This document shows, in pieces, positions 5,619 to 35,555 of a DNA stretch of 64,000 bases. Below the pieces are notes generated by a model, which searched no databases, was not told where the DNA came from, and worked only from the letters and a program-made list of their open reading frames with translations. Origin of the DNA: Candidatus Doudnabacteria bacterium. GTDB taxonomy: Bacteria > Patescibacteriota > Doudnabacteria > UBA920. The stretch is from contig JAEUSF010000006.1 of NCBI GenBank assembly GCA_016788665.1, positions 4,401 through 68,400 of the forward strand. The letters are read 5' to 3'. A program made the position numbers and the translations under genes. The number at the start of each line of letters is the position of its first letter. Positions within the stretch are counted from its first letter, which is position 1.

Positions 5619-5647
5619 TTGACAAAAAATAGTATTTAAGGTATAAT
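5619..5647 (+). promoter_or_regulatory. consensus sigma70 promoter TTGACA-17-TATAAT, followed by AAGGAGG SD at 5685-5691
   Basis: Read directly: TTGACA 5619-5624, 17-nt spacer, TATAAT 5642-5647; drives the GC-rich ORF at 5700. Confidence 0.6.
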
Positions 5648-5699
5648 TTGCAGGCGCTTTTTTCACGATGCGCATACTTCAAATAAGGAGGCACACCAG

Positions 5700-6230
5700 A
5701 TGCCTAAGTACAATATTGTTTCGCCCGAGAACCCCGACTGGTTTGTCAGGAGGGTAAACAGTCAACAGGCCGTTGTTAGGGCTAAGCTGCGGCTGGACGT
5801 GGAAACCGGAAATGTGGACTACGAGTTTCGCATGTACTACCTCTACCAAGGCAAGCTGTACGAAACTACGTTTGCCACCTGGGAGCAAAAGTCAGGTGGC
5901 CTGCCAGGTACGGCTACCACTTACTTTAACTTCCGCCAACCCAGCCACATCACACTGCCCGCCGCCGCAGAATTTGTTACCAACTTTTGGCAAGGCGTCC
6001 ATAACACACTATGGATGTACGACGCGGAAACTATTACCATCGACAACAAAGGACCGAACGGCTCCTACCGAGTACTCGAAGGCGAAGAGAAAAACCTTGT
6101 GCTTTCGAGCCTGCTAAGAGGGCTTGTGAACGAACTCCGACTGCTGCTGCACATGTCGGACAACGACATGCACAAGCATTGCTACCAATACGCAAAGCAG
6201 GTGGCCGAAAGCTGCCTTGCCAACCTCTAG
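5700..6230 (+). CDS. hypothetical protein, GC-rich foreign-looking gene (no signal peptide)
   Basis: 176-aa ORF with markedly higher GC than flanks, perfect SD and promoter; no recognisable domain. Confidence 0.6.
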   Translation: MPKYNIVSPENPDWFVRRVNSQQAVVRAKLRLDVETGNVDYEFRMYYLYQGKLYETTFATWEQKSGGLPGTATTYFNFRQPSHITLPAAAEFVTNFWQGVHNTLWMYDAETITIDNKGPNGSYRVLEGEEKNLVLSSLLRGLVNELRLLLHMSDNDMHKHCYQYAKQVAESCLANL

Positions 6231-6459
6231 CCTACACAAACAACGTCCGACTGTAAAAATTTTAAAACTTTAATCTGGTATTAATATAAACTATTTTTAA
6301 AAGAAAAAAGATTCAACGAAGACCCGCGTGCGCCAAATATATCTGCCGCGGGTCTTCTTCACACCTAGAGTTGAAAAAAAACCCTTAAAATGCTAAACTT
6401 TCAAAAGTTAACTACTGTATACAATTTGAAATTTGATATTTAAACTTTGATATTTCTAT

Positions 6460-6534
6460 GGCGCTATCGTCTAATGGTTAGGACAGGTGGTTCTCATCCA
6501 CCAAATCGGGGTTCGATTCCCCGTAGCGCTACCA
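6460..6534 (+). tRNA. tRNA-Glu (anticodon CUC)
   Basis: Cloverleaf folded by hand: acceptor GGCGCTA/TAGCGCT (G1-U72 wobble), D arm GTC..GAC, anticodon stem GGTGG/CCACC with loop TTCTCAT, T arm CGGGG-TTCGATT-CCCCG, encoded CCA. Confidence 0.8.
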
Positions 6535-6540
6535 ATTTTA

Positions 6541-6570
6541 AAAACCCAACCATAAGGTTGGGTTTTTAAA
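6541..6570 (+). terminator. rho-independent terminator after tRNA-Glu
   Basis: AAAACCCAACC-ATAA-GGTTGGGTTTTT hairpin plus T-run. Confidence 0.7.
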
Positions 6571-6666
6571 ATTGTCCCGAGCGAAGTCGAGGGGCACTAA
6601 ATTTGTTCCGAGCGCAGGCCCGCTCTGCGGGCTGTAGTCGAGAGACACAAATGTTATAATATAGAC

Positions 6667-6921
6667 ATGTTTTACTTTTATCTACTCCGCACTCCCAACA
6701 ACACCCTGTACACCGGCGTCACAAGTAATCTTAGAGACCGAGAAAACCGTCACAACACTGGCCGCGGTTCAATTTGGACAACTACGCACCACGGCGGAAA
6801 AATTGTCTACACCGAAACTTTTCCTACTTTATCTAAAGCCCGCCTCCGAGAAACCCAAGTCAAAAAATGGTCTCGGGTTAAAAAAGAAAATTTGATCAAA
6901 ATGTCAAAAGTCAAGACTTGA
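6667..6921 (+). CDS. GIY-YIG nuclease family protein (small, UPF0213-like)
   Basis: FYFYLLR..NTLYTGVTSNLRDRENRHN..KIVYTETF..SKARLRETQVKKWSRVKK matches GIY-YIG catalytic module; TATAAT 7 nt upstream of the ATG and no SD, suggesting a leaderless or very short leader. Confidence 0.8.
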   Translation: MFYFYLLRTPNNTLYTGVTSNLRDRENRHNTGRGSIWTTTHHGGKIVYTETFPTLSKARLRETQVKKWSRVKKENLIKMSKVKT

Positions 6922-7107
6922 TCCCCTGTACTCTACTTTACCAAAGCAAGAAAAGTTTTCCATCCCAACTTCGCTAAAGCTTCTTCGGGCAAGCTGTCTC
7001 GACTTGGTCTAAAATGCTTCACCCTCGTGGCGGAGCTTTTCTTTCGTTAACAAAGATCATCTTTGTTTAAAAATAAAAAAAGCCGCAAAGTTCGCGACTT
7101 AACAAAG

Positions 7108-7572
7108 TTAGTCCGTTAAGGACTCCACAATCCCGCCTATAACCGCTCCGCAAGCTTCCAAGGCCGCATCCACCGCTACCTCAAAAACTGTTTCAGCAAC
7201 AGCCCCAGCAAGGCTCCATCCGGCTTCGCCCAAATCGGTACCGGTTACGGTAGATGGGTTTACAACCGGCGCAACTGCCGGCAAGGCACTTAAGGCTTTA
7301 CCGACTGCCTTTTTCGGCAGTTTTTTTGCTACCCGAATTTTGAGACTTCCCTTCTTTTTTTGCAGGGTCCCCTCCTTTTCAGCAGTATTATATTTTAAAA
7401 CAGGGCTTTGTTCAAGCCTAATATAATTTAACAAATTCCAGTAAATAAAAAACCAAGACTTGTTTAAGTTCTTGGTAAAGAAATTTCCGACTCGAGTATC
7501 ACAAGCACCTTTTTCAGGTACTGGTGGTCTGGGTAGTCTGCCGACAACAGTTTCAGCAAAGGAGCCACCCAC
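7108..7572 (-). CDS. hypothetical Ala/Val/Gly-rich protein, GC-rich; true start unresolved
   Basis: Track ORF starts at GTG; an internal TATAAT plus AAGGAGGGG precedes an in-frame CTG at about 7360, with no ATG; overlaps the upstream ORF in another frame. Confidence 0.3.
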   Translation of the reverse strand: MGGSFAETVVGRLPRPPVPEKGACDTRVGNFFTKNLNKSWFFIYWNLLNYIRLEQSPVLKYNTAEKEGTLQKKKGSLKIRVAKKLPKKAVGKALSALPAVAPVVNPSTVTGTDLGEAGWSLAGAVAETVFEVAVDAALEACGAVIGGIVESLTD

Positions 7573-8039
7573 GGGTTCAGGCTTTCGGCCAGAATCTGAC
7601 GAAGGTCAGCTTCGTCCAGCATACAGCCCAGGACCGCCAAAGCAATAGCGGCCGCCTCGTCCAGGTCCGGACAGTAGCTTGCAACTGCCAGCGCAATGGG
7701 CGCACCGAGGTGCACAAAAAATATGCCGCCCGCCGGAGTGTATGCACAAAGGCTTGTACACTGATTTTGGTTCTCTGCAACTGCAGCTACCCTCCACTTT
7801 GCAGACCCGCTCCAGAGCTGGAGGTCGACGAAGGACCATTTACACTCTGGCGCCATTAAAAGCTCATTTAGCAATGGCGGAGCGTACTTCAACCGGTCCC
7901 TGCTTTCACCTCCGGCCGAAACAAGAGTTACGACGCATCCTCTAAAAGGCCTTTTGCGGCCTTCGTTGAATGCGTCGCCGGCTAGCGCCTTTATGACTGA
8001 GCGCGCGTAGTTCCGAGTTCTTCCAGAAAGGGACGCCAT
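7464..8039 (-). CDS. hypothetical protein, GC-rich foreign-looking gene
   Basis: 191-aa ORF with GGAGG 7 nt upstream of the ATG at 8039; no recognisable domain. Confidence 0.45.
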   Translation of the reverse strand: MASLSGRTRNYARSVIKALAGDAFNEGRKRPFRGCVVTLVSAGGESRDRLKYAPPLLNELLMAPECKWSFVDLQLWSGSAKWRVAAVAENQNQCTSLCAYTPAGGIFFVHLGAPIALAVASYCPDLDEAAAIALAVLGCMLDEADLRQILAESLNPWVAPLLKLLSADYPDHQYLKKVLVILESEISLPRT

Positions 8040-8115
8040 TTTCGCCCCTCCTTCCTTATTTTGAAATACATTATAATATAGTAATCAAGCTATGTCTATA
8101 AACTAAAAAACCCTT

Positions 8116-8469
8116 ATGAATTTAAAGCCAACCAGTTACCCCAAAGAAAACGAACTGCCGAAACTTGTTAGAGACAACATACCAACCCTGTACCAAAAAC
8201 GAGCTGGCAAAATTGCACAAACTAGAATTGCCAAAAGTGACACTGAGTACTTAAAATACCTGCTAAAAAAAGTTACTGAAGAGGCCACAGAAGTTAAACA
8301 CTCGCTTAAGCACAATAACCTGCTGGAAGAAATAGCTGACGTTTACGAAGTTATAGAGGCTATACTTAAACTAAAGGGCTGGTCTTTAAAAGATGTAAAA
8401 AAGATACAGAATTCAAAACGAGAAAAAAATGGCGGGTTTAACAAACGCATAATTCTGCTCACCAAATAA
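8116..8469 (+). CDS. MazG/HisE-like nucleotide pyrophosphohydrolase family protein
   Basis: LVRDNIP...EYLKYLLKKVTEEATEV...LLEEIADVYEVIEAIL..GWSLKDV...REKNGGFNKRIIL matches the small all-alpha NTP-PPase family. Confidence 0.6.
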   Translation: MNLKPTSYPKENELPKLVRDNIPTLYQKRAGKIAQTRIAKSDTEYLKYLLKKVTEEATEVKHSLKHNNLLEEIADVYEVIEAILKLKGWSLKDVKKIQNSKREKNGGFNKRIILLTK

Positions 8470-8517
8470 AATATGGTATAATATATTTATATTAAAAAGT
8501 AAAAAGAAACTAAAAAT

Positions 8518-8994
8518 ATGAACAAGAAAGTCGCAGCTTTGCTTTCAGGCGTTTTCGCATTAAGCATGGCTATGCCTGCCTTTGCAGCCGAAGGCATGTT
8601 AAGAACAAACAGTATGAGAGTAGCCTCCTCCTCTCCAACTACAGTAGACCAAACTCAAGCAATAGCCTGCGTAGGAGCCGCCGTTAGCACCCGAGAAGCA
8701 GCTTTAGCTTCAGCCTTCTCTACGCACAGCCAAAGTCTTCAAACAGCCTATACTAACAGAGCTTCCGCTTTAGCCGCCGCTTACAAAAAAACTACCACCA
8801 AAGAAGTTAAAGCAGACGTAAAAGCTGCTTGGTCTGCGTTTACCAAAGCAAAGAGAGAAGCTTCCTCTGCTTGGGTTAAGTCTAAGAACACAGCTTGGAC
8901 AAGCTTTAAAACCTCTGTTAGAGCCTGCAAGTCATCTGTAGCAAACTCTGTCTCTGACTCAGGCAATTCTTCTTCTGAAGCCCAAGGTCAATAA
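8518..8994 (+). CDS. secreted Ala/Ser/Thr-rich protein, unknown function
   Basis: Signal peptide MNKKVAALLSGVFALSMAMPAFAA; low-complexity mature region; followed by hairpin terminator 9008-9036. Confidence 0.6.
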   Translation: MNKKVAALLSGVFALSMAMPAFAAEGMLRTNSMRVASSSPTTVDQTQAIACVGAAVSTREAALASAFSTHSQSLQTAYTNRASALAAAYKKTTTKEVKADVKAAWSAFTKAKREASSAWVKSKNTAWTSFKTSVRACKSSVANSVSDSGNSSSEAQGQ

Positions 8995-9062
8995 AACTTT
9001 AAAAAACCCGTCACTTCAAAGTGACGGGTTTTTTGTAAGTAAAAAAAAGCTTCCTAATAGCT

Positions 9063-9428
9063 TTAGGAAGCAGAAGCGACTTTAACGCTTGGGTGAATGT
9101 TTTGCTGCTCAATTATCCACAAAAGAGAAGTAATAAGGGCATCCAAGCCTGTTACCGCACAGACCCCCCTCACATGTTCACCTACAGTTTCGTAAGCAAA
9201 ATACAGCGCTCTGGCTTGGTTTATGTCCAAAGCCAAAGCATCGGCGACATTCAGCCCCGGGTCCACACCTTCGCAGACTACCACTTGCACAGTATTCCAA
9301 AAAAAACTACTCCAGTCCCCTGTGTGATTGTGTGCAAATACACACTCTACTCCTCTAAAAGCGGAAAAAATCTCGCTCCACAATTTCTTCTCTGCGTCCA
9401 AACTCAGGCCCACAATCGCGATTTTCAT
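9063..9428 (-). CDS. hypothetical protein
   Basis: Start moved to MKIAIVG with GGAGGA SD 6 nt upstream; no confident family assignment. Confidence 0.45.
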   Translation of the reverse strand: MKIAIVGLSLDAEKKLWSEIFSAFRGVECVFAHNHTGDWSSFFWNTVQVVVCEGVDPGLNVADALALDINQARALYFAYETVGEHVRGVCAVTGLDALITSLLWIIEQQNIHPSVKVASAS

Positions 9429-9519
9429 ATTCCTCCGCTCAGGAGGAGATAATACCCTAACTTTACGAATTATGTCAACTAAATATTCCAAATAAAAAAG
9501 CGCTGGCAAAAGCCAAACG

Positions 9520-9867
9520 CTAAAAGTGTACCAAGGTAAAACGAACAAACTTCCTTATCCGGGGCGTAAGTAGGCTTACGTCGTAAAGCCTGATTTTTCC
9601 AGTAATCTTGTTTGCACGCCAACAAACTTTGGCGTAGCCCCAAGTTTGGTTGCGAATAACAACGCTCGCGACAAACCCTAAACCCTGCGAAGACCCTCCG
9701 CCCTTACAAGCGCTCTTTACAACGACTCTAACATCCCCGGCCTCACGGGCGCATGTCTTCTTACTACGCGCAAGTAGCGCTATCACTCCTTCAGCCACAA
9801 GCCTACTAGCCAAACTAAAATCCACCATTGAGGCCTTGTTCTTAAAATACCCCAGCTCTGGCTTCAT
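9520..9867 (-). CDS. hypothetical protein, GC-rich
   Basis: ATG (MKPELGYF) preceded by GAGGAGGG and TTATAAT on the minus strand; GC-rich segment 9560-9900; could instead be noncoding. Confidence 0.3.
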   Translation of the reverse strand: MKPELGYFKNKASMVDFSLASRLVAEGVIALLARSKKTCAREAGDVRVVVKSACKGGGSSQGLGFVASVVIRNQTWGYAKVCWRANKITGKIRLYDVSLLTPRIRKFVRFTLVHF

Positions 9868-9988
9868 AACCCTCCTCAAAATTATAACAACCAAGCATTA
9901 TACAAAACTTTAACCCTTTTTTCAAGCCCAAAATAAAATCCCCGCACCTCTAGGTGTGGGGCATGCAGAATGCAATTATGATTGGCTT

Positions 9989-11053
9989 TTATTGCTGAAA
10001 GAGCCTTCGAGCCGTTTCAACTTTCTCCCTTAGGCCTTCAGTCTCCTTCTCTTTAGCTTGGAGCAAGCTGCGAAGATTTTCGTTCTCCTGAAGCAGATGA
10101 GTGACCTGTGCGAGCAGATTCTCCATTGCCTGCTGGGAATCTGCAGTTGCCTTTTTGGCTGCCGTTACAGCTTCGGCAAAAGCCGCCGAGGCACTTTGCG
10201 CGAGAACCTGTTCAATTGTCGGGGTGGATGGTTTCGCACCTTTTACCGACCGTGGCATACGAAGCTGAATTCCGCGGCTTTTTTCCAACGTTTTAATCCT
10301 GCCGTACAAACTTGCGTCCGAAATACTACTCCTATTAAACCCCATCGAACGGATTTCGCGGATAACATCCCGCTTGCTGCCCATGTGCCGGTCGTAAATG
10401 GAGCTCAACCCTGCTAAAACATCTTCGAGCCGGGGCCTGCTCATGACGGCAGGCTTCGGTCCCTCTGTTGTTGGTTGCCCGACGGATGTTTCCGGACTTA
10501 GCAAGGCCGGATGCGGTTGTTTTTCATGGGCTTGGTTCAGTCTTTTAGCCCCAGACTGATCAGCCATTGCTACGGTAACGGGCGCGGGTGTATGTTGAAG
10601 TTTCTCAGCATCAGGCTTAGGCAAGCCTACTGTCTTTGTGACCCCACCCAAACTTAAGCAGATGACACCTTTTTTGTCGCCTTGGAAAGATTCGACCATC
10701 CTATGCAAGAACGACGCAGCGTCAACCACCAACATTACGCAACCGGTCTTCTTACTACTAACCAATTTTTCAATGCTGGAAAGGATCTCGTCGCCAAGCC
10801 TCCCATTAACAGCAACAAACTTTGCGTTTGGCGAAAGCTGCGTTACATGCTTAGCCTGGTATACATTCCAGAAGACAACACGCCCATCAAGCTGGGCCTT
10901 GGACTTCTCTACCGCTGAATCATTTGCTCCGACTACTACCATATTTTCGCCGGGCTCGAGTCTGAATTCGAAGGACGTACCCTCGACTGCGGACGTTGCG
11001 ACAGCACTCATATACGTTCCTTGCAAAAAAGACACAAAGCCCGTAAAAGCCAT
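9989..11053 (-). CDS. hypothetical protein, possibly NYN/LabA-like nuclease domain with C-terminal coiled coil; GC-rich
   Basis: N-terminal MVVVGANDS...VMLVVDAASFLHRMV..GVICLSLGG loosely resembles the NYN fold; C-terminal heptad coiled coil; alternative start MSAVATS at 11011 has an AAGGA SD; terminator hairpin 9938-9965 on the minus strand. Confidence 0.4.
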   Translation of the reverse strand: MAFTGFVSFLQGTYMSAVATSAVEGTSFEFRLEPGENMVVVGANDSAVEKSKAQLDGRVVFWNVYQAKHVTQLSPNAKFVAVNGRLGDEILSSIEKLVSSKKTGCVMLVVDAASFLHRMVESFQGDKKGVICLSLGGVTKTVGLPKPDAEKLQHTPAPVTVAMADQSGAKRLNQAHEKQPHPALLSPETSVGQPTTEGPKPAVMSRPRLEDVLAGLSSIYDRHMGSKRDVIREIRSMGFNRSSISDASLYGRIKTLEKSRGIQLRMPRSVKGAKPSTPTIEQVLAQSASAAFAEAVTAAKKATADSQQAMENLLAQVTHLLQENENLRSLLQAKEKETEGLREKVETARRLFQQ

Positions 11054-11447
11054 GCATCCTCTTTAAGATTTAGCAGGTTTACCCTGCCAGTTAATACGTA
11101 TTATAGCAACCAAACGCTTTTAGGCAAACCAAAATTTTAAAAATTAAAAAACCACCTTTCGGCAAGCCTTAGGTGGTTTTTTATAAAGTTTTTATGCCCA
11201 TAACATTCCTTTGAATTCGCTATTTACGACTAGCGGAACGCCTCGCAAAGACTGGATTCTTAAAGAAATTTCTTTTACAGGACACCTATGATTGCGATTA
11301 TTTCCACACGCACAGTGTGCGCACAAACCCTGCAGCTGAGAAATAATGCTTAGTTTTGTTTGTTGTATTTCAGACATAAAATTTGAATTATCTTTTTAAA
11401 TCAAAATGTAAAAATCAAAAATCAAAGTTGCAATAAAAAATTTAAAA

Positions 11448-11819: not shown

Positions 11820-11861
11820 TTTGATTTTTCAATTTTAATTTTTGCGGCTTCGTACTACCAG

Positions 11862-12837: not shown

Positions 12838-12888
12838 ATTTTTTAGTTAATCATAAATCAATATTGAATCCAACCTAAACCGGCATTT

Positions 12889-16722: not shown

Positions 16723-17019
16723 CTAGTCGCGGGGAGTAACGTAAGTTATATGTTCTAACGCGCTATCCGCACAATAGACCATTATAGGAACACCTGGGGC
16801 AATCCCGGTGGGTCCGAAATTAACGTACTTTTCCGGCCCCCGTTTGGGAGCGAAACCTTGGACATGAGACCCTAGGAAAAAGTGTGCCGGCGTCCCAGCA
16901 CCGCTCCCTTTTGGCCTGAAATCTGCCGGGTAACTATATCTCACTTCAGTTGCGCCGAACAAACCAGCGCATTGAACAACTTCTGTCACCACAGCTGGTA
17001 ACTTGTGTCTTTTTGGCAT
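16723..17019 (-). CDS. hypothetical protein, GC-rich foreign-looking gene
   Basis: ATG (MPKRHKLPAVV) at 17019 with AGGAGG 4 nt upstream; about 98 aa; no recognisable domain. Confidence 0.45.
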   Translation of the reverse strand: MPKRHKLPAVVTEVVQCAGLFGATEVRYSYPADFRPKGSGAGTPAHFFLGSHVQGFAPKRGPEKYVNFGPTGIAPGVPIMVYCADSALEHITYVTPRD

Positions 17020-19064: not shown

Positions 19065-19415
19065 ATGGGCCCCTTGCTCATACACCCCAAACCACCACGA
19101 CTCCAGCTCGTAAAAATGCTGGGCGTCTCTGCGGTCATCTGGATACTATCATTTTCACCCGCGGTCGCTTTCGCCCTCGCAGGGTCTGCTTTAGCAGACA
19201 AATATGAAGACGATACCCTGCCTCTACTGTTTTCAGTTTGCCTGCTCGTAATATTCCTTTGCTGGTTCGCCTTATCGCATGTGGTGTTCCACGTAAGCTA
19301 CCTGTACCAACACGTAGCTTACTACGAAAAGGCCGGCCACATACCACAAGCGTCTAGGGCAGAAAAAATGAAGGCGGCGTGGCAGCTGTATAAACAGCCC
19401 ATGAGATACGACTAG
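19065..19415 (+). CDS. small two-TM membrane protein, GC-rich foreign-looking gene
   Basis: ATG at 19065 with GGGAGG SD; hydrophobic helices; terminator hairpin at 19430-19465. Confidence 0.5.
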   Translation: MGPLLIHPKPPRLQLVKMLGVSAVIWILSFSPAVAFALAGSALADKYEDDTLPLLFSVCLLVIFLCWFALSHVVFHVSYLYQHVAYYEKAGHIPQASRAEKMKAAWQLYKQPMRYD

Positions 19416-19596
19416 CCTGAAAAGGCTACGACTTTCCGAAGACTAAACCCTTCGGCTTTTTATTTTTCATTCTTGTGTGTTTTGTGTTTTTGAAATTTGT
19501 CCTTTACGAAGAATCCAAAAAAAAGATAAAGGACGAACTACAAACTCCCCCTCGAGCTACTAGCTTCCGCCTACCAGCTACTAGCTAATTTGTAAA

Positions 19597-25856: not shown

Positions 25857-26270
25857 CTACAGCAAGCAGTACCTGCCTTCTTCGTAGTGCTGTGGCGACA
25901 TGGTCAGAATTAGCTCCTTTACCACGCCGTCCTTACCCAGCATTCTAAATCGTGGGCCTTGGGCCTTTTTGTCGAGGACGACCGTAACCACCCTGGGTCT
26001 TACAGCAAAAGTCCTGAAGACTGGCTTTCTGTCCTTGTCAACAAACGCGAGCTGAAAATACAGCTCTGCTCCTTCGCGGATTATGTAGTCCCCGCAGCGC
26101 ACCTGCGACGGAGATAGCTTTGTTAAAACCGGCAGCTTAGCCGGAAAAAGGTCGAAGCCCTTTTCAAAGGCCTCAGAAATCACGGCATTGATCTTGCCCG
26201 TGACCTCGTCTATTTCCTGCTCCTGGCCAGCAAACGCAGCCAACACCAAGCACGCAATAAGCAACTGCAT
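25857..26270 (-). CDS. small secreted protein, GC-rich foreign-looking gene
   Basis: ATG at 26270 with AGGAGG 4 nt upstream; signal peptide MQLLIACLVLAAFAGQ; the 40-nt palindrome lies just upstream. Confidence 0.5.
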   Translation of the reverse strand: MQLLIACLVLAAFAGQEQEIDEVTGKINAVISEAFEKGFDLFPAKLPVLTKLSPSQVRCGDYIIREGAELYFQLAFVDKDRKPVFRTFAVRPRVVTVVLDKKAQGPRFRMLGKDGVVKELILTMSPQHYEEGRYCLL

Positions 26271-26338: not shown

Positions 26339-26378
26339 GCAAAATACCTCAATACTAGCTAGTATTGAGGTATTTTGC
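26339..26378. repeat. 40-nt perfect palindrome GCAAAATACCTCAATACTAG|CTAGTATTGAGGTATTTTGC (copy 1)
   Basis: Read directly; the second copy at 35078-35117 matches at 39 of 40 positions. Confidence 0.9.
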
Positions 26379-26701: not shown

Positions 26702-26728
26702 TTGGGGTGTCGTCCCGACTAGCCGGGA
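26702..26728 (+). repeat. direct repeat copy L: tRNA-Gln 5' fragment (TTGGGGTGTCG) fused to the GTCCCGACTAGCCGGGA hairpin
   Basis: 11 nt identical to tRNA-Gln positions 27003-27013, followed by a near-palindrome; copy R at 27111-27145. Confidence 0.85.
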
Positions 26729-27098: not shown

Positions 27099-27110
27099 TT
27101 ATAATAGTAA

Positions 27111-27145
27111 GGTGTCGTCCCGACTAGTCGGGACCACCCCAGCCA
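27111..27145 (+). repeat. direct repeat copy R: GGTGTCG + perfect palindrome GTCCCGACTAGTCGGGAC + duplicated tRNA-Gln 3' end ACCACCCCAGCCA
   Basis: 13 nt identical to the tRNA 3' end (27066-27078); followed by terminator hairpin CACCAATAAACATTGGTG plus T8 (27154-27179). Confidence 0.85.
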
Positions 27146-27318
27146 AAAGAATTCACCAATAAACATTGGTGTTTTTTTTATGGTATAAATTATTTTGAAC
27201 CAAACTTTCAACACTTTCTAGGGGTGGACGTTTTTCTACATTTTTGCTAAAATACAAGGTCTCTTGTCAATGCTGCGGCAGTAGGAAGACTAGAGTGAAT
27301 GTAAAGGAGGTGAGAAGA

Positions 27319-27753
27319 ATGCAAAGTATTCGCGCGTTTGTACCGTGGACGTTTTTTAGAAAGCTGCATCCGTTCAATGCGGAGCTGCTGAAAAGCAACG
27401 CTATGCTTGTCAGAGCATGCGGCGCTAAACCCGCAGACGGCAGCATTTTACGGTCTAGGGGTTATTTGCTTTTTGGAAACGGAGTGGCCACACTCCTTCC
27501 TCAAGCAGAGACACTCGCACAAGGACTGAACGGCGTAAAAGGTTACGTTATGGAATTCGTCCAAAAGCGTGACCCTCGTAATGTCGCCTACTGGGAAGTC
27601 CAAATCTCAGTAGACCAGACGCGGGTCGAGCGGGATTGGAGAATTGAAGCGTCCTGCTTGCCGCCAGATTCGGACGAGGGCATCCACTTCACGCCCCTCG
27701 TCGAACAGCAAGGCAAACCCGGACAGTATTTCTACCTTACTTGCGTAGCTTAG
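27319..27753 (+). CDS. hypothetical protein, GC-rich (gene A of islet)
   Basis: ATG at 27319 with AAGGAGG at 27304-27310; 144 aa; no recognisable domain. Confidence 0.5.
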   Translation: MQSIRAFVPWTFFRKLHPFNAELLKSNAMLVRACGAKPADGSILRSRGYLLFGNGVATLLPQAETLAQGLNGVKGYVMEFVQKRDPRNVAYWEVQISVDQTRVERDWRIEASCLPPDSDEGIHFTPLVEQQGKPGQYFYLTCVA

Positions 27754-27868
27754 GGCGGACAGCAATGTTCGCTAAACCGTAACTTGGGGTTTGTTGTCCA
27801 AATGCGGCCACCTTGTGTGGCTTTCCATAATGTGACAAACCCTCCTTAACCCCAAAAGGAGATTTGTC

Positions 27869-28354
27869 GTGAGAAACTTAGTCTACGTATCCGGGGCATT
27901 GAGCGATGTCCCCTCGGCCATTCGGCCTCTGTACCTCGACTTTTACGAGTTGATCGGACGGAAAGTCGAGACTCTCGGACTTGCTTCATATGTCCCGCAC
28001 CTCAACACAGACCCGGTGCGGCACAAAAACGTAACTCCGAAACAGGTCGACCTCATCGACCGGACAGCAGTCACCTCAGCTATGCTGGTCGTAGCCGTGG
28101 CAGACAATCCGTCGCTCGGTGTCGGTATTGAGGTCGAGATGGCCTTCCATGCTAACAAGCCGGTTGTACTTCTCTGCCAACGAGAACGAATCGAGCAGCG
28201 GCTCATTAGCCGCCTAATCCGCGGCAACCCTGCAGTCATCCACGAGATTGTTTATGTGGATTTCGCCGATGCGCTCTCTTTACTTGAAACGTTCATTCTT
28301 TCATTCCTGAAAGAACAGGCGGAGAGTATTCTTCCAAAGACGCTCAAAGTCTAG
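27869..28354 (+). CDS. DNPH1/Rcl-like 2'-deoxynucleoside-5'-phosphate N-glycosidase family protein (nucleoside 2-deoxyribosyltransferase fold)
   Basis: GTG start with AAGGAG SD; VYVSGALSDV N-terminal phosphate-loop-like segment and VAVADNPSLGVGIEVEMAFHANKPVVLL..ISRLIRGN closely parallel the DNPH1 motif PSLGVGYELG..A..NK (recalled from memory, not searched). Confidence 0.6.
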   Translation: MRNLVYVSGALSDVPSAIRPLYLDFYELIGRKVETLGLASYVPHLNTDPVRHKNVTPKQVDLIDRTAVTSAMLVVAVADNPSLGVGIEVEMAFHANKPVVLLCQRERIEQRLISRLIRGNPAVIHEIVYVDFADALSLLETFILSFLKEQAESILPKTLKV

Positions 28355-28487
28355 CAATCAGGCGGTGTCGCATACAGCGATGCCGTTTTTTTTGGTAATA
28401 AATCCACGTCTCAGTTTAGCGTATTATAACTTTCTAAACTCGCCTAACACCCTAAGCTTCAAATAATTGTATATACAGCTAACACTG

Positions 28488-28540
28488 AGTAAAAATTAAA
28501 AAAACCGCGGGGCAGACTGGTTGGTCTGCTCCGCGGCTGG
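28488..28540 (-). terminator. rho-independent terminator for the secreted beta-helix-like gene
   Basis: CCGCGGAGCAGACC..GGTCTGCCCCGCGG hairpin followed by a U-run on the minus strand. Confidence 0.6.
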
Positions 28541-28551
28541 ATTACTTCTTG

Positions 28552-29808
28552 TTATTGGTTGCCGTACAGCTTCGCTTCACACTCCACCTTACCGGTAGAA
28601 GCCGCGTTGGTTTGCGCGGTAAACTTAACGGTAAAGCCGGTGTAAGTCTTGTTGCTAAACGACACCGAAGGCGCTGCGTAGCCTGCAAACTCCTGCACGC
28701 CACACCCCGACAGCGAGTAGTTGGCTACCCCCGGGAGAAAAGGCGTGAGGAAATTGACCACGTAGGTGCAGGTGGATCCTGCGACTGCCGCGGTCGTACA
28801 GTTACTCTGCGGGTCGGCGGCGGTAACCATACGCACGCTACTAAGTTTGGTTAGAACCCCGGTAGCCGTGCGTGTGTTGATGATGCTGCAATCCTTACAG
28901 GGCGTAACGCCGTCAGGACTTGAACCATTCGAGATGGTTGTGTTGTAAGCGGGAGTTTCCCCATTAGGACCCGCCGTATCTTCCGCAACAACGCCGCCAG
29001 CTCCGTTTCCGGAAGTCTGGACTCCATCCACAACGTGGTCAAGCCCTCGCAAACTCAGCCCCCTACTTCCATTCGTAACCCTGAGGCTGCGAAATGTGAA
29101 ATAGGTTGAACCCATAACGTAAGCACCGTAACCACTTCCGGAGAGGTTTATGTAACCTCCCCACACGTTTACGCGCACAAAGTTAGAGTTCGAAGACGGA
29201 TTTGATGGCACCGTTACCAACCCGTAGGTGAACACTCCGGTCCACACAACCTCGTGTAGGTCAATATCGCCGGTATAGCAAGGAGCGCTACCACCCTCCA
29301 CCGTGCAGAGCCCAGCAGGGCTCCAATAGGTATTCTTAAGCACCAAGCCATCGGTGCGGTAGCGGGTAGTATTTCTGTTCGCGAATATCACGTTCCGGAG
29401 TTTCGCCCGGATCATGTTGTCGAGCACCACAGCATTCGCAGTGTTACTGTTTGAGGTAGTCAAGTCGAAGATGATATCCTCGAACTGCACCCCGTAGGAA
29501 AACATGCCCGGAAAGCCCATTGTGAAGATGGTGCTGCAACCATTGCAGCTGAGCCTTACCATCCCGCCGTTCTTGGGCCGAAACCGCACAACCACCTCTG
29601 AGGGAATGGTATTCCAAAGCCCGACCGAGATTTTACAATCGGACTCGAACAGAACCTCGCCTCCCCCAGACAAGACAATCAGGGGGTAATTCTGTTGCAG
29701 CGACAACGACGCAGTACCATCTGCGCATGACGCTGCGGTTACCACGTAGCTTGTGGCAGCCTGTGTACTGGCTACGAGAGCCAGAAACAGGACAAGAAGT
29801 CTAAACAT
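28552..29808 (-). CDS. secreted Cys-containing Gly/Ser/Thr/Asn-rich protein, possible right-handed beta-helix; GC-rich
   Basis: ATG at 29808 with AAGGAGGAG SD; signal peptide MFRLLVLFLALVASTQA; repetitive N/G/S/T-rich segments typical of beta-helix adhesin/lyase folds; fold not proven. Confidence 0.55.
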   Translation of the reverse strand: MFRLLVLFLALVASTQAATSYVVTAASCADGTASLSLQQNYPLIVLSGGGEVLFESDCKISVGLWNTIPSEVVVRFRPKNGGMVRLSCNGCSTIFTMGFPGMFSYGVQFEDIIFDLTTSNSNTANAVVLDNMIRAKLRNVIFANRNTTRYRTDGLVLKNTYWSPAGLCTVEGGSAPCYTGDIDLHEVVWTGVFTYGLVTVPSNPSSNSNFVRVNVWGGYINLSGSGYGAYVMGSTYFTFRSLRVTNGSRGLSLRGLDHVVDGVQTSGNGAGGVVAEDTAGPNGETPAYNTTISNGSSPDGVTPCKDCSIINTRTATGVLTKLSSVRMVTAADPQSNCTTAAVAGSTCTYVVNFLTPFLPGVANYSLSGCGVQEFAGYAAPSVSFSNKTYTGFTVKFTAQTNAASTGKVECEAKLYGNQ

Positions 29809-30246
29809 TAACTCCTCCTTATGGGAGCTAGTGCCCGCACCTATAGCAAGGCGCAGATTTCCGAAATTATGACAGATTCCAGAGTGCACATTGAGGTCTC
29901 AGCGCAAATGACAAGCGCTTTATTTTGACCAGTGCCCGTTGGCACCTCTGTTGGCACAGAGGGTAATTATATTAAATATTCATTAAATTGTAAATAGTGC
30001 CCATATCCTAGCGGACAATTTACGCGAATTACCCACTAGGAAAATACTATAAATTAACTATACATGTAATAGCTTTTTAAAAGGTTGTTTGGTATTATTA
30101 CTAAAGTTAATAACAACTTTAGAATACCTTTTTAAACAAAAAATGTGTAATAAAATTACTAATGTAAAATAATTTTTAATATATTTATATTCTAAACATA
30201 AGCAAAACAATTTTATTTCATAATATACTTAGTTCAATACTCCCAT

Positions 30247-30636
30247 ATGACCAAAGACATAAAACAATACAATTCAAAACTAAAGGGCGAGGACAAAAAG
30301 ATTTGTAATATATTAGTAAAAGAAATATATGCAAATTTAAAAGAAGCGGAAAGCAAAGTCTGGCACGGGCATCCGGTGTGGTTTTTGGACGGAAACCCTA
30401 TAGTTGGCTACGGAAAGCTTAAGGCTTCAGTGCAATTGCTTTTCTGGAGCGGACAGACGTTTAAAGAAAAAGGGCTTAAGCCTGAAGGCAGTTTTAAAGC
30501 TGCCGAGGTACGCTATACTAAAGCAGAAGAAATAAGCACTACACACTTAACCAAGTGGTTAAAAAAAGCGAAAAAAATTCAATGGGATTATCAAAATATA
30601 GTCAAAAGAAAAGGTAAGCTAATTCGACTAAAATAA
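30247..30636 (+). CDS. DUF1801 (YdhG-like) domain protein
   Basis: ..VWHGHPVWFLDGNPIVGYGKLKASVQLLFWSGQTF.. matches the DUF1801 family; native AT-rich composition; bidirectional terminator 30643-30677. Confidence 0.6.
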   Translation: MTKDIKQYNSKLKGEDKKICNILVKEIYANLKEAESKVWHGHPVWFLDGNPIVGYGKLKASVQLLFWSGQTFKEKGLKPEGSFKAAEVRYTKAEEISTTHLTKWLKKAKKIQWDYQNIVKRKGKLIRLK

Positions 30637-30770: not shown

Positions 30771-31112
30771 ATGCTTCGCGCCAAAATCGCATTGGCCGCA
30801 ATGGCGGCCATGTCACTTGGTCTCTCAGCTCCCGCTGTTGAGACAACCCCCGAGCTCATTCCCGAGCTCGGAAAACAACAGCCCAAGTTCGCACCCGCTA
30901 CGGTCGAAGACGATACGGTCTGCGCCGTCGCCTACCAAGACGGCCCCAACCAAATTTTGGCACGTGAAAAAGACGTGCCGAAAGGGGCGAAGATTGTGGC
31001 AGTGTACACGGCCACAAAAAAAGAGTGCGCGCGCCTGGGACGACTCCCAAGCGTCAAAGCGCAAAAACGGGGTACGGTCATTCACTTTACAGCCCCCGCC
31101 CAGCCAAAGTAG
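30771..31112 (+). CDS. small secreted protein, GC-rich
   Basis: AGGAGG 5 nt upstream; signal peptide MLRAKIALAAMAAMSLGLSAPA; own terminator 31112-31137. Confidence 0.55.
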   Translation: MLRAKIALAAMAAMSLGLSAPAVETTPELIPELGKQQPKFAPATVEDDTVCAVAYQDGPNQILAREKDVPKGAKIVAVYTATKKECARLGRLPSVKAQKRGTVIHFTAPAQPK

Positions 31113-31195
31113 AGCACCTTGCTCTACTATTTTTTTGACCCTTTTTGTTTTTCTATTTATAATTCTCACACCAAGTTTAAGCCAGAGGAGGCCGA

Positions 31196-31612
31196 ATGCT
31201 GAGAATTCTGATTGTTCTATATTTCCTTTCTTGGGGCACATTCGAAGCCGCTGTGTGGCACCAAGAAGAAGTGGCGTCCGTAAAAACCCAAGGCCAAACC
31301 AAAAGCAAAGTGATCTTCCCCAGAGTCACGCTCGGAGAAAACTACCAAAGCGAAGTCGCTGTTATAAACACTTCACAAGCTGTTGGCTCATGTAGCCTGT
31401 CGGAGTACAGCCCAGAGCTATCACGGGTAGTGCGGGTAAGCCACACGCCAGTCATTGGCCCAGGAAAGCAGTTTAGTCTTCGGCTTGTGCCTGTCAAAAG
31501 CTTACAAAAGGCGTACATTGTAATAATTGCCAATTGTAACTTTGCAAGCACGGGCGTGCTCACAACGACTAACCTTCAAAAAAAACTCGCCACTGTAGAA
31601 CTGGCCTACTAA
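31196..31612 (+). CDS. small secreted protein, GC-rich (paralog pair with 31696)
   Basis: TTGACC-17-TATAAT promoter at about 31127-31155, GAGGAGG SD, signal peptide; shares the FP..x..S..N....C motif with the next gene. Confidence 0.55.
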   Translation: MLRILIVLYFLSWGTFEAAVWHQEEVASVKTQGQTKSKVIFPRVTLGENYQSEVAVINTSQAVGSCSLSEYSPELSRVVRVSHTPVIGPGKQFSLRLVPVKSLQKAYIVIIANCNFASTGVLTTTNLQKKLATVELAY

Positions 31613-31695
31613 AAGCACCTAAAGTTTCGGGTGCTTATTTTATTGACGAAAATGCTTTTATAAAGTAAGCTTTCAAGTTAACAAGGAGAGACGAA

Positions 31696-32124
31696 ATGAA
31701 GAAAGTAACAGGACTGTTTTGGGTCCTATTTTGGCTCTTTCTAATGACCAATGTTGTGGGTTTCTTGCGGAGCAACCTGTCTGAGTACACCGTGGTCAGA
31801 AAAAACTCAAAGAAAAAACGGGTTAAACTGGTATTTCCGAGCCTTAGCCAGGCGGAAAGCTACATGTCTACAATATGGCTCACCAACTACGGCAGAGCCA
31901 CCGCAAAGTGCCAAACGGACTACTACCTGGCCCACGGAAACGGGGAAAGATACTGGAGAGTGACCTCTACAATCTCCCCCCACTTCACCCACGTAGAGCC
32001 TCCTCCAGGCTATTCCGCCAAACAAACCGAGTACTCGGCCGTTTCTACGTGCGATGCCGGAGTTAGAGGCTACGCCATAGTCTACGGACCCAGTGGCGCC
32101 GTAGCTCTGTACGACGCCAAATAG
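31696..32124 (+). CDS. small secreted protein, GC-rich (paralog of 31196)
   Basis: AAGGAGAG SD, signal peptide MKKVTGLFWVLFWLFLMTNVVG; LVFPSLSQAESYMSTIWLTNYGRATAKC aligns with VIFPRVTLGENYQSEVAVINTSQAVGSC of the previous gene. Confidence 0.55.
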   Translation: MKKVTGLFWVLFWLFLMTNVVGFLRSNLSEYTVVRKNSKKKRVKLVFPSLSQAESYMSTIWLTNYGRATAKCQTDYYLAHGNGERYWRVTSTISPHFTHVEPPPGYSAKQTEYSAVSTCDAGVRGYAIVYGPSGAVALYDAK

Positions 32125-32215
32125 ACCGCCCCACCAAAGCAGATTTCTCTGCTTTTTTTATTTTTCCCAAATTATATAAAGTGCTATAATTAAGCATTAT
32201 TAAACATAAAATTTC

Positions 32216-33307: not shown

Positions 33308-34182
33308 TGACCGAAACAAAAAAAGGCGAATCTTATATTTTGGCAGAAACCCTGCTCTGGAGCTTGTTCCCGGTAATTACAGTTATATCTTTAAACCAAC
33401 TAAGGCCAATGTTTTCATTGGCCTTAAGCTCTTTTTTTGCTGCTATTTTTTTTGCTTGTGTAATTACTTATAAAAAACTTTGGCATGAACTCAAAGAGAG
33501 AAAAGCACTTTGGGACGTACTGTGGGGAACCTTGCTTTTAGGAATAATATATTACTTACTTCAATTCGCCGGATTGTCGCTCTCCACCCCAGGAAACGCT
33601 GCCCTCGTTTCGCAAATGGAAATACTTTTTAGTTTTTTATTGTTCAATGTGTGGAAAAAAGAACGCATAGATTTTTTGCACCTCACTGGCTCTGGCTTAA
33701 TGCTAATGGGTGCCGCTGTCGTGCTCTTACCCAAAGGTTCCGGCGTTGCCTTAGGCGACCTACTCATATTAATTTCAGCTGCCGTAGCTCCGTTTGGCAA
33801 CCTGTTCCAAGGCCGCGCAAGGAAACAAATTAGCAGCTATACCATAATGTTTCTGCGCAACGCAATAAGTTTTCCGGTCATACTTTTTATTGCTTTTTTG
33901 CTTGGACAAACGCACAGCGAAGTCAACACTTTCAAATCTTTATGGCCAGTTATTATTAACGGCATTTTTCTTCTAGGCATCTCAAAAATATTATGGCTGG
34001 AAGCAATTCACCGCATTCCGGTAGTAAAAGCAAACGCTTTCAACTGCATAGGACCTGCCTTCACTCTAATTTATGCTTATTTGCTTTTGGGTCAGCGCCC
34101 GAATGCCTTTCAAATTTTTTCCTTAGTACCAATATCGATAGGTATATATTTGCTTACCCGACCAGCCAAACAAACTCCATAA
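33307..34182 (+). CDS. DMT superfamily (EamA-like) transporter
   Basis: About 10 TM helices in two repeats typical of EamA; overlaps the upstream stop (ATGA). Confidence 0.7.
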   Translation: MTETKKGESYILAETLLWSLFPVITVISLNQLRPMFSLALSSFFAAIFFACVITYKKLWHELKERKALWDVLWGTLLLGIIYYLLQFAGLSLSTPGNAALVSQMEILFSFLLFNVWKKERIDFLHLTGSGLMLMGAAVVLLPKGSGVALGDLLILISAAVAPFGNLFQGRARKQISSYTIMFLRNAISFPVILFIAFLLGQTHSEVNTFKSLWPVIINGIFLLGISKILWLEAIHRIPVVKANAFNCIGPAFTLIYAYLLLGQRPNAFQIFSLVPISIGIYLLTRPAKQTP

Positions 34183-34315
34183 ATTAAACGAGTAATACAA
34201 ACCAAATAGCCGCTTACCAATCTTCCCTGGGAAGATTTTTTATTTAATTACTTCTTAAGTTTTTTTAGCTATGGTGTACTTAGTCAATAAAATTTTAAAC
34301 TAATTGCACAAACTT

Positions 34316-35035
34316 ATGCCACAAAATTACAAGAAAGACTTAAGTCCGCCCAAAAAAACACTAACCCAACAACAGCTCGAACTTATTCGTAATACCGTAG
34401 CCAAAGGTGCCACGCCTGACGAGCTAAAACTGTTTTTAATAGTAGCCAACAGAGCCGGTCTCGACCCTTTTACAAGACAAATACACTTTGTAAAGAGGGG
34501 TGGCAGAGCCACAGTACAGACTGGTATAGACGGCTATAGAGCCATAGCAGAAAGAAGCGGGAGCCTGGCGGGCATAGAAGACGCATTATACGACGCCGAA
34601 GACCAAGTCCACCCGAACAAAGCCACGGTGACAGTTTATAGAATGGTGAGTGGGCAAAGAGTTCCGTTTAGTGCTTCTGCCAGATGGGATGAATACGTGC
34701 CCCAAAGCGGACAAGACTTTATGTGGCGGAAAATGCCCTACTTTATGCTCGGTAAAGTTGCGGAAGCATTAGCTTTAAGAAAAGCATTCCCAAACGACTT
34801 AAGCGGACTTTACATTCACGAGGAAATGCAACGTGACGACAACAGTACGGAAAATGATTCAGAAGCGCTAATAAATCACAACAGCACCTCTCAAGAAAAA
34901 GAAAGTTCTTTAGACCCCACATTAACTGCCGCAAAAGATTACTCAAAAAAATTCTGGTCCCGCGCCGAACAACAAACACCTGCCTCAGAAAAACAAGCGC
35001 CTGTTTACCAAAAAGAAGCACTAGACGAGCCCTAA
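34316..35035 (+). CDS. recT: RecT/Bet-family phage single-strand annealing recombinase
   Basis: LTQQQLELIRNTVAKGATPDELKLFLIVANRAGLDPFTRQIHFVKRGGRATVQTGIDGYRAIAERSG is a textbook RecT (PF03837) core; track start is TTG, ATG at 34316. Confidence 0.8.
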   Translation: MPQNYKKDLSPPKKTLTQQQLELIRNTVAKGATPDELKLFLIVANRAGLDPFTRQIHFVKRGGRATVQTGIDGYRAIAERSGSLAGIEDALYDAEDQVHPNKATVTVYRMVSGQRVPFSASARWDEYVPQSGQDFMWRKMPYFMLGKVAEALALRKAFPNDLSGLYIHEEMQRDDNSTENDSEALINHNSTSQEKESSLDPTLTAAKDYSKKFWSRAEQQTPASEKQAPVYQKEALDEP

Positions 35036-35077
35036 AAAAAGCTTGTAAAGAGTAAGGGTTAACAAAACAACAAAGCA

Positions 35078-35117
35078 GCAAAATACCTCAATACTAGCTA
35101 GTATTAAGGTATTTTGC
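35078..35117. repeat. 40-nt palindrome, copy 2 (39 of 40 palindromic)
   Basis: GCAAAATACCTCAATACTAGCTAGTATTAAGGTATTTTGC; the single mismatch is at 35106. Confidence 0.9.
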
Positions 35118-35177
35118 TAAATAACACGCAGTGACAGACTAATGGATACATGCTAAAATTCTCTGCAAGGAGGCCGC

Positions 35178-35555
35178 ATGCTTGTACTTCTAGCACTGGT
35201 CACGACGATTTTCGCCGCTGAACCCACGCAAAAAAATCTAGACGCGAGTCCAGGCTTCGTCTGGGGCTACATAGCCCGCGAAGTTAGTTGGATAACGCGG
35301 TCAGAAAGCGGGTACCTGGAACTCGTTCGTGCAGACTTGGTCTGCACCGACAAAACCGAGCGGCGCTGTGCTGCTCTTAGGCAGTACCTTATTCCACTGC
35401 CGAAGACCAACTACATGATATTTACGAAAAAGGACTTCCCACTGGGAAGTCCGAAACAACCCCGCGACGAAAACCCTGCGAGGTTAGTAAGTCCGGGGGT
35501 TGTAATCCCCCTGCTTCAAAAGCTCCAACAAGAGCCCGGGCATTCTAATCAATAG
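35178..35555 (+). CDS. small secreted protein, GC-rich
   Basis: AAGGAGG SD, signal peptide MLVLLALVTTIFAAEP; terminator hairpin about 35528-35578. Confidence 0.55.
   Translation: MLVLLALVTTIFAAEPTQKNLDASPGFVWGYIAREVSWITRSESGYLELVRADLVCTDKTERRCAALRQYLIPLPKTNYMIFTKKDFPLGSPKQPRDENPARLVSPGVVIPLLQKLQQEPGHSNQ

Follow-up and report, generated by a model that had tools for sequence, protein, structure and literature searches.

The stretch of DNA analysed here, referred to as the window, is 64,000 nt long and is part of a 68,452-bp contig (locus tags JNN11_03590 onward) of a metagenome-assembled genome (MAG) of Candidatus Doudnabacteria, a member of the candidate phyla radiation (CPR/Patescibacteria). 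Dispersed between its conserved genes are about 16 GC-rich genes, most of them led by Shine–Dalgarno (SD) sequences, and this class is old and at its own compositional equilibrium inside a genome of 40% GC. Comparison with related contigs shows that single units of the class have been gained, lost and replaced, and that at least one has moved between CPR lineages. The explanation that we favour, with about even confidence, is a stable, recombining, CPR-internal accessory gene class, largely secreted, that is held at about 52% GC. The class comprises the 14 open reading frames (ORFs) listed in a preliminary description of this DNA and two added members; the statistics refer to the 14, with starts set at the SD-proximal ATG or GTG, and 51 genes of the window serve as the native comparison set.

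The preliminary description held that the GC-rich ORFs stand in low-GC surroundings, and computation bears this out. The GC of the whole window is 0.400, while the segments named there have a GC of 0.49–0.54 and the 14 ORFs range from 0.48 to 0.58 (0.47–0.58 with the two added members). GC at third codon positions (GC3) is 0.45–0.66 (mean 0.57) in the 14 ORFs and 0.28–0.46 (mean 0.36) in the native genes (Mann–Whitney p = 1.4e-8), and the two classes show scarcely any overlap. The pooled GC of the class is 52.3%, so that the elevation is real and the earlier figure of 'mid-50s%' slightly high. At the first, second and third codon positions the pooled GC is 56/43/58%, and the named frames are therefore genuinely coding; islands of non-coding RNA were considered and rejected on this ground, and also because Rfam at gathering thresholds matches only two tRNAs in the window (tRNA-Glu at 6460 and tRNA-Gln at 27004-27078). 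In the proteins of the class, cysteine is 2.6-fold enriched, Arg, Pro, Ala and Val are raised, and Lys, Ile and Asn are lowered. Four-fold degenerate sites, which are T-rich in native genes (T 0.39), are balanced in the GC-rich class (C 0.29, G 0.27). Stop codons differ too: TAG closes 10 of 14 GC-rich genes but, among 30 native genes, only 10, TAA being the usual stop there.

Meanwhile, the two classes differ in their initiation signals. SDs were scored as the predicted anti-SD duplex energy over the 21 nt upstream of the start, with -6 kcal/mol or lower taken as strong. A strong SD precedes 13 of the 14 GC-rich genes (mean -10.8 kcal/mol) and 2 of the 51 native genes (mean -0.85 kcal/mol; Fisher p = 8.6e-11), and both native matches are badly spaced or lie inside an operon. 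The claim that each GC-rich ORF has an AGGAGG-type SD is thus correct for all but one, and what was claimed of the native housekeeping genes checked, that they have none, holds for 49 of the 51 native genes, which lack an SD despite leadered mRNAs, the pattern expected of a Bacteroidia-like, SD-blind translation system. Native leaders are mostly A/T-rich and SD-less, with a -10 box within 10 nt of the start in few genes; the possibility that native genes are leaderless was rejected because only a few have a -10 box 7–16 nt from the start. The SD motif is kept between orthologues while the adjacent leader bases change, so it is probably functional, and this conservation suggests that it is very probably used by the ribosome of this organism. 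In seven independent related contigs, the GC3 of SD-led genes lies 0.13 above the locus median (19 vs 76 genes, p = 4e-8), and the association of SD and high GC is also seen in the contigs L001 and L035. The promoters are less distinctive. The two promoters cited in the preliminary description are present, at 5619-5647 (12/12 consensus positions) and 31135-31163 (11/12), but consensus promoters also precede native genes, such as rplJ (18990-18963, 12/12) and dus (16720-16692, 11/12), and promoters of one type were found for both classes in a promoter scan. What sets the classes apart is solely the leader with its SD and the composition of the coding sequence.

A recurring layout emerged when 160 nt upstream and 110 nt downstream of each unit were read and combined with consensus scans: the terminator of the preceding gene is followed by a promoter (TTGACA-like -35, spacer of 16–18 nt, TATAAT-like -10), an SD leader, the ORF and a terminator, the last consisting of a hairpin and then a T-run after the GC-rich ORF. 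The leader measures about 25–70 nt (about 155 nt for the ORF at 28552, g28552), with AGGAGG or AAGGAG 4–9 nt before the start codon. Most GC-rich units have their own sigma-70-type promoter and terminator. The earlier view that they are mostly monocistronic with their own terminators is sound as regards these autonomous promoter–ORF–terminator units, with the exception of 27319-28354, a two-gene operon. Two further segments of the earlier list are composite, since 7108-8039 holds two units and 30771-32124 three monocistronic genes, and two members were absent from it, namely 9063-9428(-) and the small ORF at ~7108-7365(-). The units are collected in Table 1.

Table 1. GC-rich units of the window and the palindrome found upstream of two of them. 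E, anti-SD duplex energy in kcal/mol; TM, transmembrane. Orthologue identities are from codon alignment to L039 unless BLASTP is stated.
Feature	Coordinates	Strand	ORF and product	Expression signals	Remarks	Orthologues (amino-acid identity)
Unit 1	5619..6230	+	5700-6230, 176 aa, cytoplasmic orphan	Promoter TTGACA-17-TATAAT (5619-5647); AAGGAGG leader; E -12.2	GC 0.52, GC3 0.66; no Pfam, PADLOC, PHROG or NCBIfam match; singleton at 90% identity	
Unit 2	7108..7415	-	~7108-7365, 85 codons, Ala/Val/Gly-rich	Promoter TTGAAC-17-TATAAT (7415-7387); AAGGAGG 5 nt before apparent CTG start (start uncertain); terminator 7100-7080	GC 0.52	
Unit 3	7464..8098	-	7464-8039, 191 aa, orphan	Promoter TAGACA-17-TATAAT (8098-8070); AAGGAAGGAGG; E -12.2	GC 0.55, GC3 0.58; no Pfam, PADLOC, PHROG or NCBIfam match	
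Unit 4	9063..9478	-	9063-9428, 121 aa	Promoter TTGACA-18-TATTAT (9478-9449); GGAGG; terminators 9071-9049 and 9034-9001	GC 0.47, GC3 0.48	
Unit 5	9520..9925	-	9520-9867, 115 aa	Promoter TTGAAA-17-TATAAT (9925-9897); GAGGAGG; E -12.7	GC 0.49	
Unit 6	9989..11127	-	9989-11053 (g9989), 354 aa	Promoter 11127-11100; weaker SD AGAGGA	GC 0.51	
Unit 7	16723..17019	-	98 aa	CAGGAGG; terminator 16724-16704	At dus/rplL junction	
Unit 8	19065..19455	+	19065-19415, 116 aa, membrane protein	GGGAGGAG; terminator 19436-19455	Between rplJ and DUF218 gene	
Unit 9	25857..26270	-	g25857, 137 aa, secreted	CAGGAGG; terminator 25845-25824		L039 68%; GC3 0.64; SD kept
Unit 10	27225..28388	+	27319-27753, 144 aa; 27869-28354 (g27869), 161 aa	Promoter 27225-27253; terminator 28360-28388		
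Unit 11	28505..29994	-	28552-29808 (g28552), 418 aa, secreted, all-beta	Promoter TTTACA-17-TATAAT (29994-29966); ~155-nt structured 5' UTR; AAGGAGG; terminator ~28505-28545		L039 31%
Unit 12	30771..31128	+	30771-31112 (g30771), 113 aa, secreted	CAGGAGG; terminator 31108-31128		L039 68% (BLASTP 59%); L040 56% (BLASTP); both GC-rich
Unit 13	31135..31636	+	31196-31612 (g31196), 138 aa, secreted	Promoter TTGACC-17-TATAAT (31135-31163); GAGGAGG; terminator 31613-31636		L039 35-36%; L040 39% (BLASTP)
Unit 14	31696..32155	+	31696-32124 (g31696), 142 aa, signal/TM N-terminus	AAGGAG; terminator 32136-32155	Weak paralogue of unit 13 (BLASTP E-value 2e-4)	L039 38% (BLASTP 41%); L040 69% (BLASTP)
Unit 15	35131..35555	+	35178-35555 (g35178), 125 aa, secreted	Promoter GTGACA-17-TAAAAT (35131-35159); AAGGAGG		L039 61%; SD GAGGAGG
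40-nt perfect palindrome GCAAAATACCTCAATACTAGCTAGTATTGAGGTATTTTGC	26339..26378	.			Upstream of unit 9; conserved in L039 at 6206-6247	
Palindrome, second copy (1 mismatch)	35078..35117	.			Upstream of unit 15	

The age of the class can be read from its relatives. The closest are the NCBI assembly GCA_964523855.1 (L039), syntenic with window positions 20054-42807, and the Logan assembly SRR12901019 (L040). Backbone proteins are 55–98% identical between the window and these two relatives, and synonymous divergence (dS) of the backbone is 0.8–5, that is, saturated. For six units (g25857, g28552, g30771, g31196, g31696 and g35178), positional orthologues exist in L039 and/or L040; the GC3 of these orthologues is 0.56–0.64, and eight of their nine starts retain the SD. 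Only the start called for g30771 in L039 has none (duplex energy -1.5), while the orthologue in L040 keeps its SD (-10.2). In the window, L039, L040 and a further relative, L029, the pooled class GC at the three codon positions is about 50–57/43–44/56–58%. The GC3 of the class is at or above the Lawrence–Ochman expectation for its overall GC, that is, for a genome of 52% GC, which is the opposite of amelioration. Three-taxon parsimony on the three genes common to the window, L039 and L040, a method that is crude on saturated sites, gives 206 GC>AT and 193 AT>GC substitutions (85 and 83 at third positions). Since GC-rich orthologues persist across saturated dS and the codon-position GC is at equilibrium, the composition is maintained and is no fading scar of a recent transfer.

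These results bear directly on the preliminary description, which regarded the units as recently acquired cassettes: they would be independent imports from a high-GC partner or host, not yet ameliorated, with SDs and promoters as signals of the donor. The atypical composition fits such an origin, and so do the absence of the blocks 6921-11192 and 27078-28500 from relatives and the proximity of two blocks to tRNA genes (tRNA-Glu at 6460, tRNA-Gln at 27004). It is disfavoured for the six units with orthologues, all GC-rich and all but one orthologue start SD-led across saturated dS, and it is opposed by the equilibrium codon-position GC and the symmetric changes, which show no ongoing amelioration. 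In a two-state decay model of our own with an equilibrium GC3 of 0.36, a per-lineage dS of 0.5–1 leaves 20–45% of the excess, so that recent import would require an implausible initial GC3 of at least 0.85. Absence from relatives, as a recent gain would predict, is seen for the units of 6921-11192 (against L029) and 27078-28500 (against L039) and for units 7 and 8 (against L030, L031 and L041), but not for the six others.

A metagenome scan with a native 686-aa protein encoded in the window returned syntenic relatives, and at conserved junctions the presence of units varies among relatives. In L029, the backbone order is tRNA-Glu, GIY-YIG, w_11192, lexA, intervening genes, the 686-aa gene, dus, rplL and rplJ, and the block 6921-11192 is absent; its dus/rplL junction carries a 531-aa ORF that is unrelated to unit 7 and has a GC of 0.53, a TTGACT-17-TATAAT promoter, AGGAGG and a terminator. 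This unit was also compared with g9989 as a candidate homologue, and no homology was found. In L030 and L041, dus and rplL are directly adjacent, with no counterpart of unit 7; unit 8 is absent at its junction in L031 and L041; and L039 is without 27078-28500 and hence without unit 10. Because units are present, absent or replaced at conserved junctions, they fill gaps of the backbone and turn over. The picture of autonomous cassettes between conserved backbone genes is therefore upheld, with clear gains or losses in some cases (6921-11192 against L029; 27225-28388 against L039). Variability is not confined to the class: the AT-rich DUF1801 gene at 30247-30636 is absent at that position in L039 and 79% identical in L041, and not all variable genes therefore belong to the GC-rich class. 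In L041, it adjoins as a conserved pair the RecT-family recombinase gene that lies in the window at 34304-35035 (Pfam E = 2e-30, GC 0.45), which stands alone with no SD and no partner exonuclease.

Movement between lineages is best seen in unit 10. It shows 81.7% nucleotide identity over 1,174 nt to a JGI contig (L001) and an ENA contig (L002) from independently assembled metagenomes, where its GC of 54% again stands out from a 44% GC background and its neighbours differ from those in the window, being S1 and a metallo-beta-lactamase-fold gene. Its best genome match is a Saccharibacteria MAG of 50% GC (L003), where the two proteins are 45% and 76% identical and the context is a third one; in all three contexts the GC of the unit is 0.52–0.54. 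g27869 also has relatives of 35–43% identity in cyanobacteria and one Anaerolinea MAG. An archaeal or methanogen origin, suggested by the F420-ligase and TrmB neighbours in L001, was dropped: the S1 and GyrA genes of L001 are bacterial, its leaders are of the SD-less A/T kind, and a Saccharibacteria MAG gives the best genome match. With L003 as outgroup, the window lineage of this unit has 24 GC>AT and 15 AT>GC changes, a weak and non-significant hint of decay that would agree with recent import. The contig L001 contains another GC-rich (0.54, GC3 0.67) signal-peptide orphan at 18151-18798 (-), which hints that the phenomenon extends beyond Doudnabacteria.

With regard to a donor, the tetranucleotide z-scores of odd and even halves of the GC-rich class correlate at r = 0.11 (native subsets r = 0.48), and those of the class and the Saccharibacteria locus L003 at r = 0.07. 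With neither a coherent signature nor a resemblance to L003, the data give no support to one high-GC donor. Phage and plasmid collections and genomes outside CPR yielded no homologues, g27869 excepted, and nearly all of the relatives recovered are on other CPR or CPR-like contigs. The proposed derivation from a high-GC partner or host thus finds no backing, and homology searches, which recovered relatives of some units, left nearly all as orphans and disclosed no outside donor. With this evidence added to the maintained composition, we consider recent import decidedly unlikely.

Other modes of arrival have also been weighed. A genomic island would show mobility genes and direct repeats at a tRNA. 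tRNA-Glu and tRNA-Gln are near, but the ORFs scanned against Pfam include no integrase or transposase, and the only long repeat pair is a palindromic hairpin that is also present in L039. Integron cassettes do not fit either, as the units are scattered, have their own promoters and are accompanied by no integrase; a repeat search and reading of the flanks revealed no shared imperfect palindrome of attC type at unit ends. The units resemble phage morons in being single genes with their own promoter and terminator and a deviant composition, inserted between conserved genes, which is the classic moron layout. Morons or decayed prophage or mobile-element cargo would also agree with the lone RecT gene, the orphan products and the 43-nt repeats at 26339 and 35078, which bracket 8.7 kb. 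However, the units are not in a prophage: structural, integrase and terminase genes are lacking, there is no meaningful PHROG match, and neither the tblastn search of phage records nor the IMG/VR scans described below gave a match. They are interleaved one by one with chromosomal housekeeping genes (rplJ/rplL, lexA, dus and a sigma factor) in an order that is conserved in relatives, and L039 has the 40-nt repeat at the two corresponding sites, where its sequence looks like a hairpin terminator. This origin is thus judged very improbable. The 8.7-kb segment between the palindromes was likewise rejected as an integrated element, given that L039 shares the two palindromes and most of what lies between them and that no integrase is present.

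Assembly chimerism or contaminant reads could in principle produce such a mosaic, as this is a short-read MAG in which composition switches abruptly. Against this, every junction is intergenic with a coherent order of terminator, promoter and SD, and units recur at equal positions in independent assemblies (NCBI, Logan and JGI/ENA). Mis-assembly is therefore very unlikely, and we give this explanation only the slightest probability.

Few of the products can be related to known proteins. The statement that they have no recognisable domain is borne out by profile searches, as Pfam, NCBIfam, PADLOC and PHROGs gave no credible match for any unit; a signal-peptide or TM-like N-terminus was said to be present in most and is found in about half (7 of 14). 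The tested products are singletons at 90% identity, except g27869. Neither 50,697 phage records nor 72,556 plasmids gave a tblastn match to any product, and three IMG/VR scans were likewise empty. A word-indexed search of 5.8 billion proteins with g28552 returned only g28552 itself; since this search also missed its 31%-identical orthologue in L039, 'orphan' means here that there are no close relatives. The AlphaFold2 (AF2) model of g28552 from a single sequence was unusable, with a predicted local distance difference test score (pLDDT) of 39. For g9989, a full HMMER scan of 1.84 billion representatives gave seven distant homologues of 28–34% identity, one of them fused to an extracytoplasmic function (ECF)-sigma domain, and these were found only on contigs with a mosaic of A/T-leader genes and SD-led GC-richer genes. 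AF2 with an 8-sequence alignment (pLDDT 69 overall, domains 75–93) predicts for g9989 a Rossmann-like alpha/beta domain at the N-terminus together with a small helical bundle and a long coiled coil, and the model has no significant fold match in the PDB. The protein of g27869 bears a distant likeness, below curated thresholds, to Rcl/DNPH1/BlsM/nucleoside 2-deoxyribosyltransferase (Pfam PF05014 at 20.9 bits, under the cutoff of 28.8; PDB phmmer E = 0.002–0.05 to BlsM, Rcl and DNPH1; no NCBIfam match). The products are restricted to the lineage, and they are probably cell-surface or host-interaction factors together with a few cytoplasmic enzymes and regulators.

The proteins of the class evolve several-fold faster than backbone proteins, with non-synonymous divergence (dN) between the window and L039 of 0.21–0.94 and 0.03–0.41, respectively. 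In g28552, the promoter, the first ~55 nt of the leader and the terminator are 92–95% identical in L039 and L040, while the coding sequence (CDS) has diverged to the identity given in Table 1, as is typical of a hypervariable surface protein whose expression socket is conserved. Its 5' untranslated region (UTR; 29809-29965, -) is conserved in its 5' third in L039 and L040, a part that contains the hairpin CCCTCTGTGCCAACAGAGGG. In the predicted fold (z = -2.6) the SD is paired; Rfam gives no match, and the region may be a cis-regulatory leader of a new type. Known hypervariable surface-protein loci are similar to g28552 and to units 13 and 14 in that conserved flanks surround a divergent secreted protein, but here silent cassettes, invertases and components of diversity-generating retroelements (DGRs) are lacking and divergence spans the whole protein.

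In the main rival explanation, selection maintains an expression regime, and the SD-led GC-rich mRNAs would be a separately controlled translational regulon, translated, for instance, when the anti-SD is accessible, or as stable or structured mRNAs during host contact. It has been reported that in Bacteroidia an SD-blind ribosome conditionally translates a rare SD-led gene (PMC7797042, PMC9976891, PMC13000453). Such SD-independent translation, 'group B' of GeneMarkS-2, resembles the present case in its bulk of A/T-rich SD-less leaders and its minority of strong SDs; the SD-led gene of Flavobacteria is rpsU (autoregulation), whereas here SDs mark roughly one gene in four over 30 kb, and these are accessory and GC-rich. 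In a system of that type the anti-SD of the 16S rRNA would be sequestered by bS21, bS18 and bS6; neither the window nor the related loci retrieved contain rRNA genes or genes for these ribosomal proteins. Retention of the SD in orthologues as adjacent bases diverge, stationary composition, enrichment of secreted, Cys-rich proteins and the conserved structured leader of g28552, which is predicted to occlude the SD, would all agree with a regulon. However, the compositional shift spans all three codon positions and the amino acids rather than synonymous sites or the 5' end alone, and the backbone genes of the GC-rich relative L030 (GC3 0.63–0.68) are still without SD, so that GC richness alone does not demand one. 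We regard this explanation as unlikely, and consider it equally doubtful that there are two gene regimes, an AT-rich SD-less core and a GC-rich SD-dependent accessory secretome kept by selection as a regulon that could be controlled on its own, for instance during host attachment, and not arising as a by-product of transfer, in Doudnabacteria and perhaps in many CPR.

In the recombining accessory class that we favour, the units would be flexible genes of the Doudnabacteria genome, insulated and placed in intergenic gaps of a conserved backbone of about 38–40% GC whose translation would start without SD from A/T-rich leaders. They would circulate by recombination inside a CPR-internal gene pool, and allele replacement may be eased by the conserved flanks, which hold promoter and terminator. 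GC-biased gene conversion and/or re-import from GC-richer, SD-using CPR such as Saccharibacteria could hold the class at about 52% GC, with high recombination offsetting the AT-biased drift of the backbone. Recombination is favoured because units turn over, one moves between lineages and conserved flanks surround a hyper-divergent CDS. It has also been reported that most horizontal gene transfer (HGT) into Patescibacteria comes from other Patescibacteria (PMC12455944). Several points weigh against this explanation. No integrase or transposase that could account for insertion was seen among the ORFs scanned against Pfam. Published effects of GC-biased gene conversion in bacteria amount to a few percent of GC3, far from the 20 points at issue here. 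Evidence for the pool comes from two units only (27225-28388 and g9989), most units being orphans; the force that keeps GC high, recombination included, is one that we infer; the anti-SD of the 16S rRNA lies outside the window; and the coarseness of parsimony on saturated sites counts here as well.

Some local repeats deserve mention. Each palindrome of Table 1 lies about 60–70 nt upstream of an outward-facing secreted-protein gene, and at the second site (~12430-12470) L039 has a fully compensated variant, TTACTCCAATACTACGTAGTATTGGAGTAA; the palindrome at 26339 probably acts as an insulator or hairpin terminator, or else as an operator for a dimer. Inverted repeats of 29 nt with 93% complementarity enclose tRNA-Gln (26971-27106), and this tRNA has the opposite orientation in L039 (6316-6390), which suggests that the segment may be invertible. 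On either side of it lies a copy of the 22-nt repeat GTGTCGTCCCGACTAGYCGGGA, which contains a hairpin (26707-26728 and 27112-27133), one copy being just upstream of the truncated-looking GIY-YIG ORF 26745-26900, the only AT-rich gene there with a good SD. Perfect 7-nt tandem repeats are found at 46106-46155, 63829-63861, 59336-59381, 61482-61508 and 58093-58120, directly upstream of where native minus-strand genes without SD have their start codons (e.g., GAGTAGT x7.1, ACTACTC on the coding strand). Their role may be that of leader or enhancer elements independent of SD, or of phase-variable spacers.

The class can finally be compared with atypical and horizontally transferred genes, such as the atypical class of GeneMarkS-2 (PMC6028130) and the HGT genes of Patescibacteria (PMC12455944), with which it shares deviant composition, patchiness, ORFans and exchange within CPR. 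The atypical genes of PMC6028130 usually have a lower GC than the host, while the GC of the present genes is 12–20 points higher. Here the deviation is stationary over saturated divergence instead of ameliorating, the initiation signal differs from that of the host, and the units are accompanied neither by an integrase nor by direct repeats at their flanks. The literature searched does not describe any class of GC-rich, SD-led genes in a CPR genome that otherwise lacks SDs. Accessory and transferred genes are usually AT-richer than the host and drift toward its composition, and the class breaks this rule, being GC-richer than its host, stationary over deep divergence and different from the core in its initiation signal. 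If the phenomenon is general in CPR, detectors of HGT and binning methods based on composition would misread such genes as contamination or recent transfer, and the class would offer a natural system for intragenomic GC heterogeneity, in which biased gene conversion could be set against selection. An SD combined with high GC3 would then be, for such uncultured episymbionts, a sequence-only marker for fast-evolving, largely secreted candidates for host interaction.

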